Positions 7,476 through 59,465 of a stretch of DNA of 64,000 nucleotides are shown here, piece after piece (position 1 is the first letter of the stretch; each line of letters starts with the position of its first letter). Under the pieces are notes generated by a model, which was not told the origin of the DNA, did not search any database, and saw only the letters and a list, made by a program, of their open reading frames with translations. Made by a program: the position numbers and the translations under genes. The stretch is taken from positions 32,001 to 96,000 of the forward strand of contig JANNBC010000054.1 in the NCBI GenBank assembly GCA_031385045.1, in the 5' to 3' direction. This stretch comes from a bacterium. Lineage in GTDB: Bacteria; Bdellovibrionota_C; UBA2361; CALJRW01.

Positions 7476-7639
7476 GATTTCAGTGAAATTTGCATAATTG
7501 TTACGCTAGTAGCTCAAATAAGACTAGAATGATCATATTAATTTAGTACTAAATATTGTCTTAAAAAATCATTTGCTGATATTTATAATCTTAAGTAGTG
7601 GTGTTTTAAAAGGTTGTTAAGATGTTTTTTCAAGGGATA

Positions 7640-7840
7640 TAAACCCTCCGCAGATGAAATTTGCGGAGGGCGAGCGTAATCTTGGCTTTAGCTAAGTTAC
7701 GCCGTAAAAGACAAAACCAATACTCATCGCAGATGCGTAGGGTTTGGTTGTGTTTTCTACGGCACAACCTGTCTTCGACAGGATTTTGCTCGCTCACCTT
7801 TCTTTTCATTTTTTATCAAAAATGAAAAGCGGTGAGTATA
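7640..7840 (+). repeat. ~200-bp structured repeat, copy 1 (MITE-like; inverted relative to 9211-9413)
   Basis: Reverse complement of 9211-9413 aligns end to end; imperfect terminal IR TAAACCCTCCGC / GCGGTGAGTATA; multiple internal hairpins. Confidence 0.9.
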
Positions 7841-7869
7841 ATTTTTTTACCCACTTTGCTTAAATTGCA

Positions 7870-9063: not shown

Positions 9064-9210
9064 AACTGATTTTTAAATTTAGTCAGAAGAAATTCTATCT
9101 AAAACCTAGTAGTTTTTTATAGTAATCATTTTTTATAGAATTACTCTAGACCTAGTATTATCAAAGAATCTCTAAAAAAGACAGTACTGTAAATAACAAA
9201 ACAAGGTACT

Positions 9211-9413
9211 TAAACTCACCGCTTTTCATTTTTGATAAAAAATGAAAAGAAAGGTGAGTGAGCAAAATTCTGACGCAGACAGGTTTTGCCGTAGAGAACA
9301 ATACTAAACCCTACGCAAATTAGCGGTGAGTATTGGTTTTGTCTTCTACGGTGTAACTTGGCTTAAGCCAAGATTACGCTCGCCCTCCACAAATTTCATC
9401 TGCGGAGGGTTTA
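9211..9413 (-). repeat. ~200-bp structured repeat, copy 2
   Basis: Inverted copy of 7640-7840; terminal IR TAAACTCACCGC / GCGGAGGGTTTA (10/12 match). Confidence 0.9.
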
Positions 9414-9451
9414 AATAGATTTTTTATATCAACTATAGTACTTTTTCTCCC

Positions 9452-22377: not shown

Positions 22378-24009
22378 TTAATTTTTGGAATTAACAAATG
22401 GTAATAACTCATCTGGAGTAATCCCTTGTTTGCTTCGATCAAGGATATCATTTACTTCACCAAACAAATCATCTGGATGCATTCCACGGTTAAGTAAATC
22501 ATTCAGAGTTAATCTGCTAGCATTTGAGATTGCTCCATTTCGCTTATCACTTGTAATTGCCTGATGTTCCGTAACAATTATAGAAGAGCAAAACTCTAAT
22601 AACTCCTGAAGCGCCTGCATGTTAGGTTTTTGTAAGCCAAGCTCTTTCGCCATATCGTATTTGCGAGAAATCATTAAACCACCTAAAGCCTCAGTAATAT
22701 TTTTAATATGATTAATCTCGCGATCAGAAATCCGAATATCCATTTCTACAATTACTGCCTTGAAAAAGCCTCTGAAGATCTCTCGAGCCATATCTTCTAA
22801 AGTATTTCCGGAAGTCTTCCCTTGCTCTTCTAACTCTTGCACGTTAGCAGGTTGGTTGTGATGGGCATAAGTACCAATTAGAACATTAGCAATCTGGGAG
22901 ATCTCAGCCTTACCATTTTGAACCAAAGAGGCCATGTGTAAGTTCTTGCTAGTCTCATCAAAGTACCCACCACCAATTGGCACATCTTTTAAGATATCCA
23001 TACGAAACTGACGCTCACCAGACAGTTGATAGGTAACTTCTTTTAAAACTTTGGATACAACGCCTAGCTTATCACCAAGAACATAATCAACTGCTTCAAT
23101 AAAAGGAGTCATAACTGCGTTAAGTCTTCCAGTTTCTACTCCAGCAGAATTAATTCGAAAAAAAGAAGCAATTGAAGCAACACAATCATGCAAAGCCGTA
23201 TGCATAAAGCCAGCAAGATAAGCAGAAGCTGGAAGCTTTAAATCTGTATCCATGGAAGAATAGAATCCATTATGATCAGATACACCATCGCGGAATTGTC
23301 TAGCTAAGACTGCAAGCGAGGCAACATACATTGCCGTTCCTTTTCCAGAGTGCTTTAACTCAGGAAGGTTCAATCTATCCCAAAGCTGATGAAAGCCGAT
23401 ATGGTTTGGATAAACAAACTCCAAATTGCCAATATGCCCTTTATCTAAATCGGGAGTGGTATATGCAGAAAGTCTTTCTCTCTCCAAAGCCAGCGCACTC
23501 GCATCACGAGTATATTTAAAATCATCTCCTGGATAATTTGGAGTAGCGAAGATTCGCAGATATAGACCGTTGTGACCTGGTATAGAAAGATTGGTATAGG
23601 CATTATTTAGCTGTGTTGCTGCCTCAGCAACCTTAACTCCAATTGATGTTAAAGGAGAATGCTCCCCTAGGGCATCCCTAGGCATTGTTGGACAACAAAT
23701 ACTTAAAGATAGTGGACGTTGCTCTACTGCAATTCGCTCCTGAAGTAATTTTTGGAAACCATGATCAAGCCTTAAATGTGCAAGACTATCAGAAAACTCC
23801 AGCTGCTGAGGTGTTAATTTTCCCTGCATCTTAGCAGTAGATAAAATATTTAAAATTTCATCAGTGGAAGGAGGAAGACCTTGGCCTAACGTAACATCTG
23901 GAAGCTTAGCTACGTGTCGAATAAACTCTACAGGCTTGGGCCCGAAGTTTTGAATTTTTTGTGACATTATAGGAATTCTAGTTAAATCAAGTTTAGCGTC
24001 ATTCAACAT
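22378..24009 (-). CDS. Divergent GT-A glycosyltransferase, glucosyl-3-phosphoglycerate synthase-like, paralogue 1
   Basis: GKGTAM, DTD (DxD), GRLN, YQLSGE, AHHNQ correspond to GpgS-family GKG/DxD/GR/LxGE/H motifs; gene context. Confidence 0.6.
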   Translation of the reverse strand: MLNDAKLDLTRIPIMSQKIQNFGPKPVEFIRHVAKLPDVTLGQGLPPSTDEILNILSTAKMQGKLTPQQLEFSDSLAHLRLDHGFQKLLQERIAVEQRPLSLSICCPTMPRDALGEHSPLTSIGVKVAEAATQLNNAYTNLSIPGHNGLYLRIFATPNYPGDDFKYTRDASALALERERLSAYTTPDLDKGHIGNLEFVYPNHIGFHQLWDRLNLPELKHSGKGTAMYVASLAVLARQFRDGVSDHNGFYSSMDTDLKLPASAYLAGFMHTALHDCVASIASFFRINSAGVETGRLNAVMTPFIEAVDYVLGDKLGVVSKVLKEVTYQLSGERQFRMDILKDVPIGGGYFDETSKNLHMASLVQNGKAEISQIANVLIGTYAHHNQPANVQELEEQGKTSGNTLEDMAREIFRGFFKAVIVEMDIRISDREINHIKNITEALGGLMISRKYDMAKELGLQKPNMQALQELLEFCSSIIVTEHQAITSDKRNGAISNASRLTLNDLLNRGMHPDDLFGEVNDILDRSKQGITPDELLPFVNSKN

Positions 24010-24264: not shown

Positions 24265-25881
24265 CTATTCAAAACGCCTTAAATCACTTGGCTTAATTCC
24301 ATCAGAGCTATCTTTTAAAATAGTATTAACTTCTCCAAAAAGCTGTCGACTACCAGCTCTTAATAAAACATCTTGCAATGTAAGGCGCGGAGAATCCGTA
24401 ATTTGACCAGCAGCATAAGCCGTATTTACATTGTTAAATTCAGTAATAATCGCTCCACAGAAATGAGTCAGTAAAGACTTCAAAGCTTTTTCATTAGGGG
24501 AATTTAAACCAACATCTTGAGCCAACTCACTTTTTTGCCCAATCATCATTGCGCCATACTTGTAAGTTAAATCAGAAACTTGGGCGATCTCTTCCGGATA
24601 AATTCTAAATTTCATTTCCGCAACAATAGCCCTAAAAAATCCTTGAAGAATTTCGGAAGCCATATGCTCCAATGTCCTTCCAGAAGAAGCATTGTTTTGA
24701 GCAACCAGCTCATCGCGATTTGCAGGCTGGTTATGATGCGCATAGGTACCAATTTGCACATTAGCAATATCACTTTCCCTTAATGGATAATTTGGATCGA
24801 TAACCTTACTTGCTAAATCCAGATTGATACTAGTTTCATAAAAATATCCTCCACCAATTGGAATATCTTTTAAAAGATCTGTGCGGAACTGTCGTTCACC
24901 GGATAACTGATAATTAATTTGTCTAATAACGCCCATCACCTCCCGAAGACCTGGTCTATGCTTTGTATTCTGACCAAGGACACGCTCAAATGCTTCCATA
25001 AAAGGTGTCATGATTGCATTTAATCTACCAGTCTCAACGCCCTGCGCATTAATTCGAAAGAAGGAGGCAATTGAAGCCACAGAATCATGCAGGGCAGAAT
25101 TCATAAATCCTGCTAAGTAAGCAGACGATGGAACTTTTAAATCAGTATCCATCGCAAAATAAAAACCATTTCGATCAGGTATTTGCGCTTCAAATTGACG
25201 CGCTAAAACTGCTAGAGAAGCCACAAACATTGCCGTTCCCTTCCCAGATTTCTTTAACTCAGGAAGCTCCAACTTGTCCCACAAATTAAAAAACCCAACA
25301 TGATTTGGATAAACAAACTCTAATTTTCCAATTTGATTTCCTCGCAGATCAGGATGTGTGTAAGCAGATAAACGAGTCCTTTCTAAATCTAAAGACCTTT
25401 GATCCGTAGCATAAACATCAAAATCTTTTCCTGGATAATTTGGTGTAGCAAAAATACTCATCAATACGGCAACTCGTTTTTCCGCATCAGGAACATTTGG
25501 GAAATTTGGAATCTGATGATACTCATCAAACAATTTTTTTGCTGCGTAAGCTACTTTTCCACCTATAGCTGGCAAAGTAGTATTCTCACCTAGACTATCT
25601 CTAGGCATCGTAGGACAGCAAACATTCACTGCCCAAGATCTACCATTTAAAATTCTTTGAGTGAGTGAATGACGAAAATCTGAACCAAAAGTTAAATGAG
25701 AAAGATCGGTGTAAAGTGATCTTTGCTCATTAGTTAAGGAACCTTCTTGAGACTTTTTTTCTAGGGTTTGTAAGATCTCATCAGTAGATGGAGGTAGGCC
25801 GTTAGCTAAGTGTCCCTTGGGGTATAAAGTAGCAACTGTACGGATGAATTGTTCCGGACTAACACCAAAGGTATTCAACAT
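24265..25881 (-). CDS. Divergent GT-A glycosyltransferase, GpgS-like, paralogue 2
   Basis: Clear paralogue of 22378-24009 (shared CCPTMPRD, IFATPNYPG, GKGTAM, MDTDLK, ETGRLNA, YQLSGERQFR, GTYAHHNQPAN); ATG at 25881 likely start. Confidence 0.6.
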   Translation of the reverse strand: MLNTFGVSPEQFIRTVATLYPKGHLANGLPPSTDEILQTLEKKSQEGSLTNEQRSLYTDLSHLTFGSDFRHSLTQRILNGRSWAVNVCCPTMPRDSLGENTTLPAIGGKVAYAAKKLFDEYHQIPNFPNVPDAEKRVAVLMSIFATPNYPGKDFDVYATDQRSLDLERTRLSAYTHPDLRGNQIGKLEFVYPNHVGFFNLWDKLELPELKKSGKGTAMFVASLAVLARQFEAQIPDRNGFYFAMDTDLKVPSSAYLAGFMNSALHDSVASIASFFRINAQGVETGRLNAIMTPFMEAFERVLGQNTKHRPGLREVMGVIRQINYQLSGERQFRTDLLKDIPIGGGYFYETSINLDLASKVIDPNYPLRESDIANVQIGTYAHHNQPANRDELVAQNNASSGRTLEHMASEILQGFFRAIVAEMKFRIYPEEIAQVSDLTYKYGAMMIGQKSELAQDVGLNSPNEKALKSLLTHFCGAIITEFNNVNTAYAAGQITDSPRLTLQDVLLRAGSRQLFGEVNTILKDSSDGIKPSDLRRFE

Positions 25882-31853: not shown

Positions 31854-32035
31854 AAATCTTAAACACAGGTAAATTAAACTTTAAGCTTGCTAACTAATAA
31901 TAGTGAAAATAATTAAAGTTGTTAAGAGCAAAATATGAAATCGCCTTAAAGGCAAAGAGTCACTCTCTATTTCCGTACTCAAGCATTTTGACTGGAACAA
32001 TCTTACCAATATGCTAAAGTTCCTTAGCTTATAGA

Positions 32036-32080
32036 GAATCCAAAAATGGATTTCCTTAAAGGAAATCCATTTTTGGATTC
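32036..32080. repeat. Perfect 45-bp palindrome upstream of lysC
   Basis: GAATCCAAAAATGGATTTCCT-taa-AGGAAATCCATTTTTGGATTC. Confidence 0.9.
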
Positions 32081-32086
32081 GGGCTT

Positions 32087-32147
32087 TTCAAATCCTGGAT
32101 TCCTGTCACGCCATAGCTTTAGCGCAGGCGGGATATCCAGGTTTGAA
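32087..32147 (+). repeat. Long hairpin capped by the REP-like motif (core 32109-32130)
   Basis: TTCAAA-CCTGGAT...CGCCATAGCTTTAGCGCAGGCG...ATCCAGG-TTTGAA. Confidence 0.65.
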
Positions 32148-32166
32148 TGCCTAAAAACAACAAATA

Positions 32167-32225
32167 TAGTCAACCCAACAGGAATTCCGAAAAAAATTTT
32201 CGGAAATTCATTCTTGGGTTTACTA
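32167..32225. mobile_element. Minimal 59-bp member of the TA-flanked MITE-like family
   Basis: TA|TAGTCAACCCAA...TTGGGTTTACTA|TA; same ends as the elements at 37317 and 59236. Confidence 0.75.
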
Positions 32226-36441: not shown

Positions 36442-37273
36442 AATTCCTTTTACCAAAATGCATGGCTTAGGTAATAATTATATTTACCTTAATTGCCTGG
36501 AAGCTAGCCCCGAGAACCCAGAAGACCTAGCAATTAAAGTCTCCGATCGAAACTTTGGAATTGGTAGTGACGGACTAGTTTTAATCATGGGAAGCGAACA
36601 GGCAGATTTTCGCATGCGAATGTTTAACTCTGACGGATCGGAAGCACAGATGTGCGGGAATGCTGTTCGCTGTGTTGCGAAATACCTTTATGAAAAAAAT
36701 CTTACAAAGCTAACCAGTATCAAGTTAGAAACTAAGGCTGGGATTAAAATTCTAAACCTAAAGTTAAAAAATAATCTAGTAACAGAAGTCAGTGTTGATA
36801 TGGGCGCCCCAATCCTCAAGAGTAAGCTTATTCCCGTTGCCAGCGAAGAACCGCAACTGACTAACTACCCAATAGAATTTTTTGGTGAGCAATTTAAAGT
36901 CAACGCTGTCTCCATGGGGAATCCCCATCTCGTAATTTTCGTACCAGAAATAACGGATCGTCTAGTACTTCAACTAGGACCAAAAATTGAACATCACCCG
37001 CTATTTCCAGAACGAATCAATGTAGAATTTGCTAAAATAATCAATCGCCAAACAATCGCCATGCGTGTATGGGAACGTGGTAGTGGTGAAACTCAAGCCT
37101 GCGGAACAGGAGCCTGTGCGGTGGCAGTAGCCTCTGCCCTAAACAACTTAAGCGATCGTCAAGTTACCATAAAACTACTTGGAGGTGACTTAGATATTAA
37201 TTGGCAAGAAAACGATCATGTCATTATGACTGGGCCTGCGGAGTTTGTATGTGATGGAGAATTTTACTACTAG
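36428..37273 (+). CDS. dapF: Diaminopimelate epimerase
   Basis: FTKMHGLGN, NSDGS..QMCGN, GNPH, ERG.GET.ACGTG; ATG at 36428. Confidence 0.96.
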   Translation: MTLTKIPFTKMHGLGNNYIYLNCLEASPENPEDLAIKVSDRNFGIGSDGLVLIMGSEQADFRMRMFNSDGSEAQMCGNAVRCVAKYLYEKNLTKLTSIKLETKAGIKILNLKLKNNLVTEVSVDMGAPILKSKLIPVASEEPQLTNYPIEFFGEQFKVNAVSMGNPHLVIFVPEITDRLVLQLGPKIEHHPLFPERINVEFAKIINRQTIAMRVWERGSGETQACGTGACAVAVASALNNLSDRQVTIKLLGGDLDINWQENDHVIMTGPAEFVCDGEFYY

Positions 37274-37276
37274 TAG

Positions 37277-37768
37277 CTAGCGATAGATATCCTTACGATG
37301 TCCTAATTTAAGGATATAGTAAACCCAAAAAGTAATTTCCGAAAAATCAGCAAAAATAAATACCTCAGGAGTCAATTGAATCCCTGAAGGAATTAGTATA
37401 ATTCAAGAACGATCCTTGCTAAACCTTCGGTTTAACAGAGTTTATTCTTGGGTTTACTATATTTTTCTTTTGGCTCCCTCTGGTCGCTAATATAGTCATA
37501 ACTCTATAATTTTAATTTCCTAACGGAAATTACTTTTTGGAATGACTATAATAATTAACTTCTTATTTTCGACACTATAAATGACGCGATAGTCTCCAAT
37601 CCGAACTCGATAGAGATCCTCATATCCCGAAAGTTTTTTATGTCCAAAGGGATAAGGATTAAGCCCTAGCTGGACTATCACACTAACAACTCGCTGTTGG
37701 TAAGACTTACTAATTTTCTTTAATTGCTTTTCAGCTGTTCTAGATATTTCAATCTGAAACTTAGACAT
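37277..37768 (-). pseudogene. relE: RelE/ParE-family toxin interrupted by a 232-bp element
   Basis: N-part has A.KQLKK, KKLSGYEDLYRVRIGDYRVIY; removing 37317-37548 and one TA restores KKLIIILKLGHRKDIYR* (85 aa). Confidence 0.88.
37317..37548. mobile_element. 232-bp composite MITE-like element with TA target duplication (37315-16 / 37549-50)
   Basis: Unit A 37317-37459 (TAGTAAACCCAA...TTGGGTTTACTA), spacer, unit B 37493-37548 (TAGTCAT...ATGACTA); inverted copy at 59236-59465; empty site reconstructs an intact ORF. Confidence 0.88.
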
Positions 37769-37979
37769 TGATTTTCAACTCACTTAACACTTCACTAAAA
37801 GGTCGGGTGGGTTCTTTTCTGAGCTTTGGGATGTCTGCAATATCAGCGACCTCCTCTAGTTTTTCAATAATACAATCCTGAACAAAGCGATTGATAATGA
37901 AACCTTTTGACTTACAATATTTCTTCAAGGCTTCAGCTATTGCTTGATCGAGACGGGTAGTAATTTGTTTTGTAGCCAT
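37761..37979 (-). CDS. Antitoxin, ribbon-helix-helix-like (RelB/CopG type)
   Basis: 72 aa, KQITTRLD...L..YC, IIEKLEE..DI; overlaps start of toxin gene. Confidence 0.75.
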   Translation of the reverse strand: MATKQITTRLDQAIAEALKKYCKSKGFIINRFVQDCIIEKLEEVADIADIPKLRKEPTRPFSEVLSELKINV

Positions 37980-37984
37980 AACTT

Positions 37985-38014
37985 ATGGTATCATTTGATG
38001 TCATTTGATGTCAA
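37985..38014 (-). promoter_or_regulatory. Putative sigma-70 promoter/operator of the TA module
   Basis: TTGACA-18-TACCAT, 5 nt before the ATG; contains a tandem 10-bp CATCAAATGA repeat. Confidence 0.6.
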
Positions 38015-38075
38015 GTTAAAAACCAAACGTAACCCTATTCTGCAACTATCTAGTTGGTAGAAATATTAAAATACT

Positions 38076-38104
38076 TTGACAATCCTCCCTGAGATCATTA
38101 AATT
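38076..38104 (+). promoter_or_regulatory. Putative sigma-70 promoter of dapL
   Basis: TTGACA-17-TAAATT upstream of ATG 38137. Confidence 0.45.
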
Positions 38105-38136
38105 GTGCCCTAAATTTCATTACTTCAATCTTAAAT

Positions 38137-39345
38137 ATGGTTCAAAGAAACAAAAATATCGCGAAACTCCCTGCTGGCTACCTATTCCCTGTGATTGCTA
38201 AGAAGCGTCGTGAATATCAAGAAAAAAATCCTACAGCTAAAATTATTTCACTAGGAATTGGTGATACTCCTGGGCCACTTCCAAAAAACATCACAGATGG
38301 CTTAGTAAAAGCTGCCGAAGGAATGGGAACAGCAGAAGGTTATTCTGGCTATCCAGACTTGGGCTTGCTAAAGCTTCGACAGTTAATCAACCAAAGATTT
38401 TACAACAACCAATTAGACCCTGACGAAATTTTGATTTCGGATGGAGCTAAGTGTGATGTCGGAAGACTTCAAGTCCTCTTTGGTGCTGATGTAAAAATTG
38501 CCGTGCAAGATCCTGTCTATCCGGCATATGTTGATTCCAGTGTTGCACTTGGACAGACTGGTGAATTTAACCCAGAGACTAAACAGTTTGGAGGCATTAC
38601 CTACTTACCGTGCAATCCCGCCAATAATTTCTTTCCAGACTTAACTCCAGCAAAAAATTCAGATTTGATTTTTATCTGCTCCCCTAATAATCCAACAGGG
38701 GCTTGTGCAAATCGCCAACAACTAACTGAGTTGGTTGCCTTTGCCAAAGCTAATAAGGCCATCATTATGTACGATGCTGCTTACAGCGTCTTCATTCAAG
38801 ATCCAGAACTTCCAAAATCAATTTTTGAAATTCCCGGAGCTAAAGATGTGGCGATTGAAATGCACTCTTTTTCTAAGTCCGCTAGCTTTACTGGAGTTCG
38901 CTTAGGTTGGACAGTTGTACCGAAAGACTTAAAATTTGATGATGGATCTTCCGTATTAAATGATTGGATTAGACTAACAAACACAATCTATAATGGGACC
39001 TCACACATTACTCAGTTGGGTGGGATTGGAGCACTGGAAGATTCTGGCTGGGAAGAAATCAAGCAAATGACTGCTGAGTTTTTAGAAAATGCCAGGTTAA
39101 TCAAAGACGCATTAGTTAAAAAAGATGTCGAAGTTTATGCTGGAGAAAACGCTCCCTACCTTTGGGCTAAAATCCCAGGCCGAACATCTTGGGAAACTTT
39201 TGATTATCTCCTAGAGCAAGCTCAAATTGTTTGTACTCCTGGTTCTGGATTTGGAATTGCAGGCGAAGGATTTGTTCGCTTTAGTGCCTTTGGCAAAAGA
39301 GCTGATATCCTAGAAGCAATCAAGCGACTAGAAAAGTTTCTATAA
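38137..39345 (+). CDS. dapL: LL-diaminopimelate aminotransferase
   Basis: GYLFP.I, ISLGIGD, SDGAKCD, QDP.YP.YVD, PNNPTG, SFSK.A.FTGVRLG, PGSGFG..GEGF.R.SAF. Confidence 0.93.
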   Translation: MVQRNKNIAKLPAGYLFPVIAKKRREYQEKNPTAKIISLGIGDTPGPLPKNITDGLVKAAEGMGTAEGYSGYPDLGLLKLRQLINQRFYNNQLDPDEILISDGAKCDVGRLQVLFGADVKIAVQDPVYPAYVDSSVALGQTGEFNPETKQFGGITYLPCNPANNFFPDLTPAKNSDLIFICSPNNPTGACANRQQLTELVAFAKANKAIIMYDAAYSVFIQDPELPKSIFEIPGAKDVAIEMHSFSKSASFTGVRLGWTVVPKDLKFDDGSSVLNDWIRLTNTIYNGTSHITQLGGIGALEDSGWEEIKQMTAEFLENARLIKDALVKKDVEVYAGENAPYLWAKIPGRTSWETFDYLLEQAQIVCTPGSGFGIAGEGFVRFSAFGKRADILEAIKRLEKFL

Positions 39346-59235: not shown

Positions 59236-59465
59236 TAGTCATTCCAAAAAGTAATTTCCGTTAGGAAATTAAAATCATAGAGTTATGACTATAGTAGCGA
59301 CCAGCGGGAGCCAAAAGGCAAATAGTAAACCCAACAAATTAAATCAGTTAAACCGAAGGTTTATCAAAGGCCTTTAATCAGTTCGATGCTAATCCCAATG
59401 ATCTCACTAGTTCAAATATTATTATTCAGTAAACACTTTTACGGAAATTAGTTTTGGGTTTACTA
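59236..59465. mobile_element. 230-bp composite MITE-like element, inverted copy of 37317-37548
   Basis: TA|TAGTCATTCCAAAAAGTAATTTCCGTTAGG...TTGGGTTTACTA|TA. Confidence 0.88.

Follow-up and report, generated by a model that had tools for sequence, protein, structure and literature searches.

On the minus strand of this contig, a gene for a RelE toxin runs into a 232-bp repeat and stops there, and a second fragment of relE lies on the far side. Is this a toxin that the repeat holds in reserve and can release by leaving, or a toxin that is being lost? A preliminary description of the locus had proposed a small mobile element, a gene divided into two sound halves and, possibly, an on/off switch. 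Below we examine the gene, the repeat and the fate of the toxin, and then weigh the readings of the split.

The split relE gene and its displaced end

The toxin-antitoxin pair occupies the dapF-dapL interval in the window (the whole 64,000-nucleotide stretch of DNA that was analysed). The antitoxin gene comes first and overlaps the start of relE by 8 bp. It encodes a full-length RelB-like protein of 72 aa (37761..37979, minus strand; PF19807 at 28.3 bits against a cut-off of 27; NF046040 at 21.4 bits, under its cut-off of 50). Six homologues are 68-87% identical over 94-99% of the length, with P0208 at 87%, and the antitoxin is thus as intact as first supposed. A promoter-like site within short direct repeats (37985..38014, minus strand), a consensus match only, is a candidate operator. 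No intrinsic terminator was found in 37100-38200, an Rfam scan of the window returned three tRNAs and nothing else, and PADLOC gave no match.

The 5' part of relE comprises 73 codons (37549..37768, minus strand) and scores 44.5 bits with PF05016 (cut-off 23) and 32.4 bits with TIGR02385 (cut-off 27.9). The annotated ORF of 82 aa (37520-37768, minus strand) consists of this part plus read-in from the repeat, which, as originally noted, encodes the last eight residues. Beyond the repeat lies an orphaned 3' end, ILKLGHRKDIYR, of 12 codons and a stop (37277..37315, minus strand), so the missing C-terminus is indeed found in frame past the element. Among 5,652,598 six-frame 12-mers of the genome, this tail was the top match to a RelE tail profile (34.0 bits; runner-up, 20.9 bits) and its presence is therefore not due to chance. 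Its protein sequence is also identical at 12 of 12 positions to the orthologue in G002, a genome of the same family.

When the element and one TA were removed in silico, the resulting 85-aa protein scored 133.0 bits and covered all columns (1-86) of an HMM of homologues, whereas the annotated ORF reached 118.8 bits over columns 1-76. Five alternative choices of junction gave 111-129 bits. With an independent HMM, built from 142 of 150 distant representatives, the read-through again exceeded the annotated ORF (116.9 versus 107.6 bits). The reconstructed protein is thus the better RelE under both models, the comparison on which the preliminary description had staked its case.

The read-through is nevertheless not the canonical RelE that it had been called. 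One alignment column is missing at the junction, within the last beta strand, and the claim that both halves are undecayed is likewise not confirmed. In the read-through, the YRVIY strand and the HR motif stand at a spacing of 14. Among the representatives this spacing is 15 in 118 of the 125 that could be scored, 13 in five, 11 in one and 20 in one; among close homologues it is 15 in 45 of 47 scored, the other two being regex artefacts of 15. None of the 172 scored homologues has a spacing of 14, the pattern having left 25 of 150 representatives and 8 of 55 close homologues unscored. The natural shortenings go by two residues, as strand register would lead one to expect. The nearest orthologue, in G002, has 86 aa. 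With this residue missing from its last strand, the 85-aa allele cannot be considered canonical. The difference has two possible origins: loss of one codon from a short ATT run, whether ahead of the insertion, together with it or later, or an insertion other than a simple duplication of TA.

The split had also been called recent or reversible. A fairly young insertion fits the data (two private substitutions in this copy of the repeat and a sibling that is 97% identical), although its age is only loosely bounded; reversibility does not follow. By our estimate, the unchanged 12-residue tail limits divergence only to about a tenth of sites, and the lack of any amino-acid change relative to G002 fits a young insertion but would equally fit selection.

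The neighbourhood appears to be changeable. In a genome of the same genus (G001), the dapF-dapL interval carries an unrelated ELM1-like gene (PF06258; G001:C63, L038:347-1360), and the G002 relBE pair sits elsewhere in its genome, not at dapF-dapL; the pair is therefore a passenger in a turnover spot. The relE copy of the repeat lies 44 bp after dapF. Together with a 194-bp family member that forms two hairpins (window 32032-32225, 31 bp upstream of lysC), it brackets the lysine/DAP operon. Elsewhere in the source genome (G000), a second, weak ParE/RelE-family match below the cut-off occurs in a 91-codon open frame (G000:C52:26313-26477, L111). In G002, long perfect 8-bp and 7-bp tandem repeats lie downstream of the intact relE orthologue (G002:C146, L037:1-140, 250-320).

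The repeat family and its likely IS630 source

The repeat (37317..37548) is non-coding (no internal ORF of 50 aa), has an RNA fold z of -6.07 and is composite, with further end-like copies inside it near 37434-37460 and 37494. Its 25-bp terminal inverted repeats, A (37317..37341, plus strand) and B (37524..37548, minus strand), pair at 22 of 25 positions, and the 82-aa ORF takes its new C-terminus and stop codon from repeat B. On either side stands a TA (37315..37316 and 37549..37550, plus strand), in agreement with the 232-bp boundaries first given. Loose contig ends of other copies halt at 37314 and 37550, which gives sharp common ends. The two TAs are a presumed target duplication. No empty allele was seen, and the orthologous intervals of G001 and G000, considered as empty sites, had flanks that were too diverged (two intervals and one gene end compared). 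The earlier view that the insertion fixes both the boundaries and the TA duplication holds as far as the TA on each flank, but relE leaves 3 nt unaccounted for. Its frame prefers removal of 234 bp over 232 bp with these 3 nt still unexplained, and since the read-through is 3 nt short of a simple TA duplication into an 86-codon gene, relE alone cannot fix the junction exactly.

In the source genome the family is represented by 50 BLAST segments that form about 33 two-ended copies (25 paired and 8 more pairs counted from the same listing). Members span 54-265 bp, many with nested internal ends, and the short ones are hairpins. The relE copy is 70-97% identical to the eight further long copies in G000 and 67-70% identical to ten in G001. 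A profile built without the flank picked up 20 paired copies, 18 of which have TA beyond each end; its training set had been seeded with a TA-containing motif. The dispersed family, its TA flanks and its IS630-like ends (see below) uphold the proposal of a genuine mobile, TA-targeting element.

A complete IS630 of 1.17 kb with 32-bp inverted ends, encoding 344 aa, is present in G002 (G002:C110, L048:1349-2518; NF033545 at 205.9 bits against a cut-off of 100). Near-identical fragments occur at seven further places, several at contig ends, and this IS630 was apparently active in the recent past. Its ends are identical to inverted repeats A and B at 21 of 25 and 19 of 25 positions, respectively, a level (19 of 25) reached by 0 of 2,828,409 windows of a shuffled genome, and sister subfamilies in G000 match them at 29 of 31. 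IS630 ends from G001 and G021 also align with the element; by BLAST alone, the end match to the relE copy is weak (E 0.07-0.6). Because its ends match those of a complete IS630 in a genome of the same family, we classify the element as an IS630-type MITE, likely a miniature transposon that is moved by an IS630-type enzyme, and the G002 element is, on sequence grounds, a candidate mobiliser. IS630 transposases are present in G001 and G002, and searches of G000 (94.9% complete) with Pfam, tblastn and blastn found none; we therefore infer the mobiliser from relatives.

We found no published description of this family, which is new but of a known, IS630-derived type. As described for RUP of S. pneumoniae, Correia (NEMIS) and ERIC, such elements are short, AT-rich and non-coding, with terminal inverted repeats, TA termini, a stable RNA fold and size classes; RUP ends resemble IS630-Spn1, RUPs inactivate genes and fusions of ORFs to element-coded sequence occur (PMC2229807). 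The present family differs from these accounts in sequence and host, is longer (230-265 bp, besides shorter forms of 54-194 bp), has ends nested inside its members and numbers about 33 copies rather than about 100. It also resembles ISY100 (IS630/Tc1/mariner), for which a TA target with duplication, an element that begins with TA and terminal inverted repeats of about 24 bp sufficient for mobilisation in trans are reported (PMC2170065). Unlike ISY100, it has no transposase of its own, nor was one found in G000, and the chemistry here is presumed.

Other insertions appear to have been milder. The copy at G000:C7:38068-38300 (L034/L101) encodes the last 12 residues and the stop of a 227-aa ORF, and the G001 orthologue of this ORF (59% identity) stops at 215 aa, the insertion point; the element-coded C-terminus looks harmless. 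A MITE that changes the 3' end of an effector gene has been described (PMC3189936). Removal of 25 copies in silico, 15 of which were re-read, revealed by eye no second split gene, and instead merely stop-free stretches upstream of normal starts. Judged in this way, the relE copy stands alone among those examined in dividing a recognisable gene, a pattern that one would expect if only insertions in intergenic or dispensable DNA persist.

The window contains further repeats. A third family member (59236-59465, 230 bp) is 76% identical to the relE copy, with its B half at about 90%, and lies 23 bp upstream of a 532-aa ORF without a Pfam match. A different repeat of 205 bp is present as two inverted copies (7637-7841 and 9210-9416; 91-93% identical) that flank a 235-aa ORF and another ORF, which we take to be RidA-like; these copies are either a second dispersed family or the borders of an invertible segment. 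More dispersed families of 110-240 bp are common to G000 and G001 (L074, L075, L076) and often adjoin MITE copies, and some of them match window positions 7640-7840 and 9200-9420. Direct repeats at 23069-23436 and 24968-25335 (76-78% identical, 1899 bp apart) are probably paralogous gene segments.

Consequences for the toxin

The displaced tail contains the predicted equivalents of two residues of E. coli RelE, Arg81 (37295-37297, minus strand), which aligns with the Arg of the tail, and Tyr87 (37283-37285, minus strand). The first of these columns is Arg in 126 of 150 representatives, 121 of which also have the downstream Tyr. The 82-aa ORF has Phe in the Arg column and lacks the Tyr column, as the element supplies Phe and then a stop. 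Arg81 has been described as the likely general acid and Tyr87 as stacking on or positioning the mRNA (PMC5027501), and a Tyr85His change is reported to have abolished the toxicity of a Streptomyces RelE (PMC4989188). With both equivalents lost from the 82-aa product, the suggestion that the toxin is probably disarmed stands.

An AlphaFold2 model of the 82-aa product, built on 44 intact homologues, keeps the fold, including a strand at 70-77 (mean pLDDT 83.8). Because the fold is kept to residue 77 in this model, binding of the antitoxin may persist, and catalysis is unlikely. A silenced toxin beside a sound antitoxin is a familiar outcome: a survey of Photorhabdus counts 185 toxin-only against 8 antitoxin-only pseudogenes (PMC13617665), and toxin-first pseudogenisation is, in the published part of the record consulted, the documented norm. 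The locus shares with the chromosomal RelE/StbE systems of that survey a two-gene operon with the antitoxin first, a truncated toxin, an intact antitoxin and a variable interval. It differs in its lesion, which here is a MITE insertion; the word MITE is absent from the main text of that survey.

One-way decay or reversible switch

We consider it highly probable that a MITE with IS630-like ends inserted at a TA close to the relE 3' end, likely in trans, leaving a likely inactive toxin and an intact antitoxin in a relBE pair undergoing one-way decay. In this sequence of events, an IS630 transposase acting in trans would have inserted the element by cut-and-paste with TA duplication, the truncated toxin would have lost its mRNase activity, and a further 3 nt, one unit of the ATT run, would have been lost at the junction before, during or after the insertion. 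The insertion would have been tolerated, the toxin being dispensable, and would be one irreversible step by which a chromosomal relBE pair decays.

One alternative is a reversible switch, in which the element leaves and active RelE is restored in part of the population. The displaced tail is intact, the element can fold back strongly, and phase variation by insertion and excision has been reported for IS492 (in epsG) and IS256 (in icaC), each likewise a mobile element inside a gene with preserved halves (10.1101/2023.04.27.538605, PMC13640169). Those elements, as reported, are autonomous and have demonstrated revertants, whereas no revertant was seen here and the expected products are frameshifted. 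The ISY100 transposase cleaves the 3' ends precisely and the 5' ends two bases further in, and the donor junction after religation reads TATATA (PMC2170065); a 2-nt footprint of this type would yield a frameshifted 76-aa product in silico, and slippage between the 4-bp end repeats, the longest present, a frameshifted 77-aa product. In-frame products are possible: removal of 234 bp gives the 85-aa protein, which is off register with the spacing that no scored homologue has, and removal of 231 bp, through a 1-nt footprint or an offset 2-bp microhomology slippage, gives 86 aa, the family length. Neither a cognate transposase nor Ku was found in G000. A donor break in a cell without Ku is more likely to be repaired from the sister chromosome, which restores the element, and this is the repair we would expect here. 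Even IS256 is reported to excise precisely far less often than it inserts. The right filled junction, moreover, recurs in a second study (run X3, below). Among the matches listed in literature searches, there was no report of a MITE in relE or of IS630-MITE phase variation. The proposal that precise excision acts as an on/off switch is not sustained, and we regard the switch as very improbable; the same holds for its most specific form, a reversible safety catch in which an offset excision of 231 bp rebuilds an 86-residue RelE in a subpopulation. The split of relE is most likely ordinary one-way toxin-antitoxin decay.

The assembly data bear both on the switch and on whether the junction is real. 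Independently assembled contigs of run X1, which may be the source sample of the assembly, tile the locus without differences and reach from unique flank into the element by 27 and 28 nt, again without differences. A contig of X3 spans the right filled junction, covering 82 nt on one side and 80 nt on the other. Its four differences all match the copy on C33, so its element part may be chimeric, and we used this contig as junction evidence only. An assembly artefact that joined a repeat into relE could be imagined from a 61-contig assembly, but the X1 and X3 contigs and the two private bases of this copy leave it almost no credence. No joint that skips the element was present in contigs of four runs (contigs drop rare variants, and X2-X4 are patchy at the locus), and metagenome contigs gave 0 matches to an exact junction pattern in which 0-8 inserted bases were tolerated. 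Searches for the relE and antitoxin loci found no close relative, and of 91 genomes from the order, G002 was alone in giving a DNA-level relBE match. These contig data are too thin to exclude a rare empty allele.

The remaining readings concern the order of events, the product and the mover. If the 3-nt loss had disabled relE first, the MITE would have landed in neutral DNA, with the same end state reached in another order. The homologue spacings of 15, 13 or 11, never 14, suggest that loss of one residue is not tolerated, and the closest orthologue has 86 aa; however, no further lesion is visible in either half of relE, and slippage in the ATT run after insertion accounts for the 3-nt loss equally well. 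We give this order a real but minor chance. It is improbable that the 82-aa chimera still functions, as a toxin or as a co-repressor with the antitoxin. The element's first codons extend the last strand, with the HMM aligned through column 76, the AlphaFold2 model retains the fold and MITE-coded C-termini are described (PMC2229807), but the Arg81 and Tyr87 equivalents are gone and a retained fold is uninformative on catalysis. As for the mover, the short family members are hairpins and G000 has two Y1_Tnp matches, both in keeping with a REP/REPIN-type repeat moved by a HUH (RAYT-like) nuclease. REP/REPIN repeats with a RAYT flank the gene for the HUH nuclease. Here, neither Y1 locus has a full element end, only short partial motif matches, and the ends match IS630 with TA flanks; there is very little prospect that the repeat is of this kind.

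In our preferred reading of one-way decay, the locus joins two known processes, spread of an IS630-derived MITE family and decay of a relBE pair that begins with the toxin. It would be a surprise only if a reversible allele were demonstrated, in which case the MITE catch would let an uncultured sediment bacterium activate its toxin stochastically. The locus is also an annotation trap, as the truncated ORF clears the cut-offs of both Pfam and NCBIfam and would pass for an intact toxin in a count. For this lineage, the MITE family and the candidate transposase of G002 could serve as a mini-transposon system.
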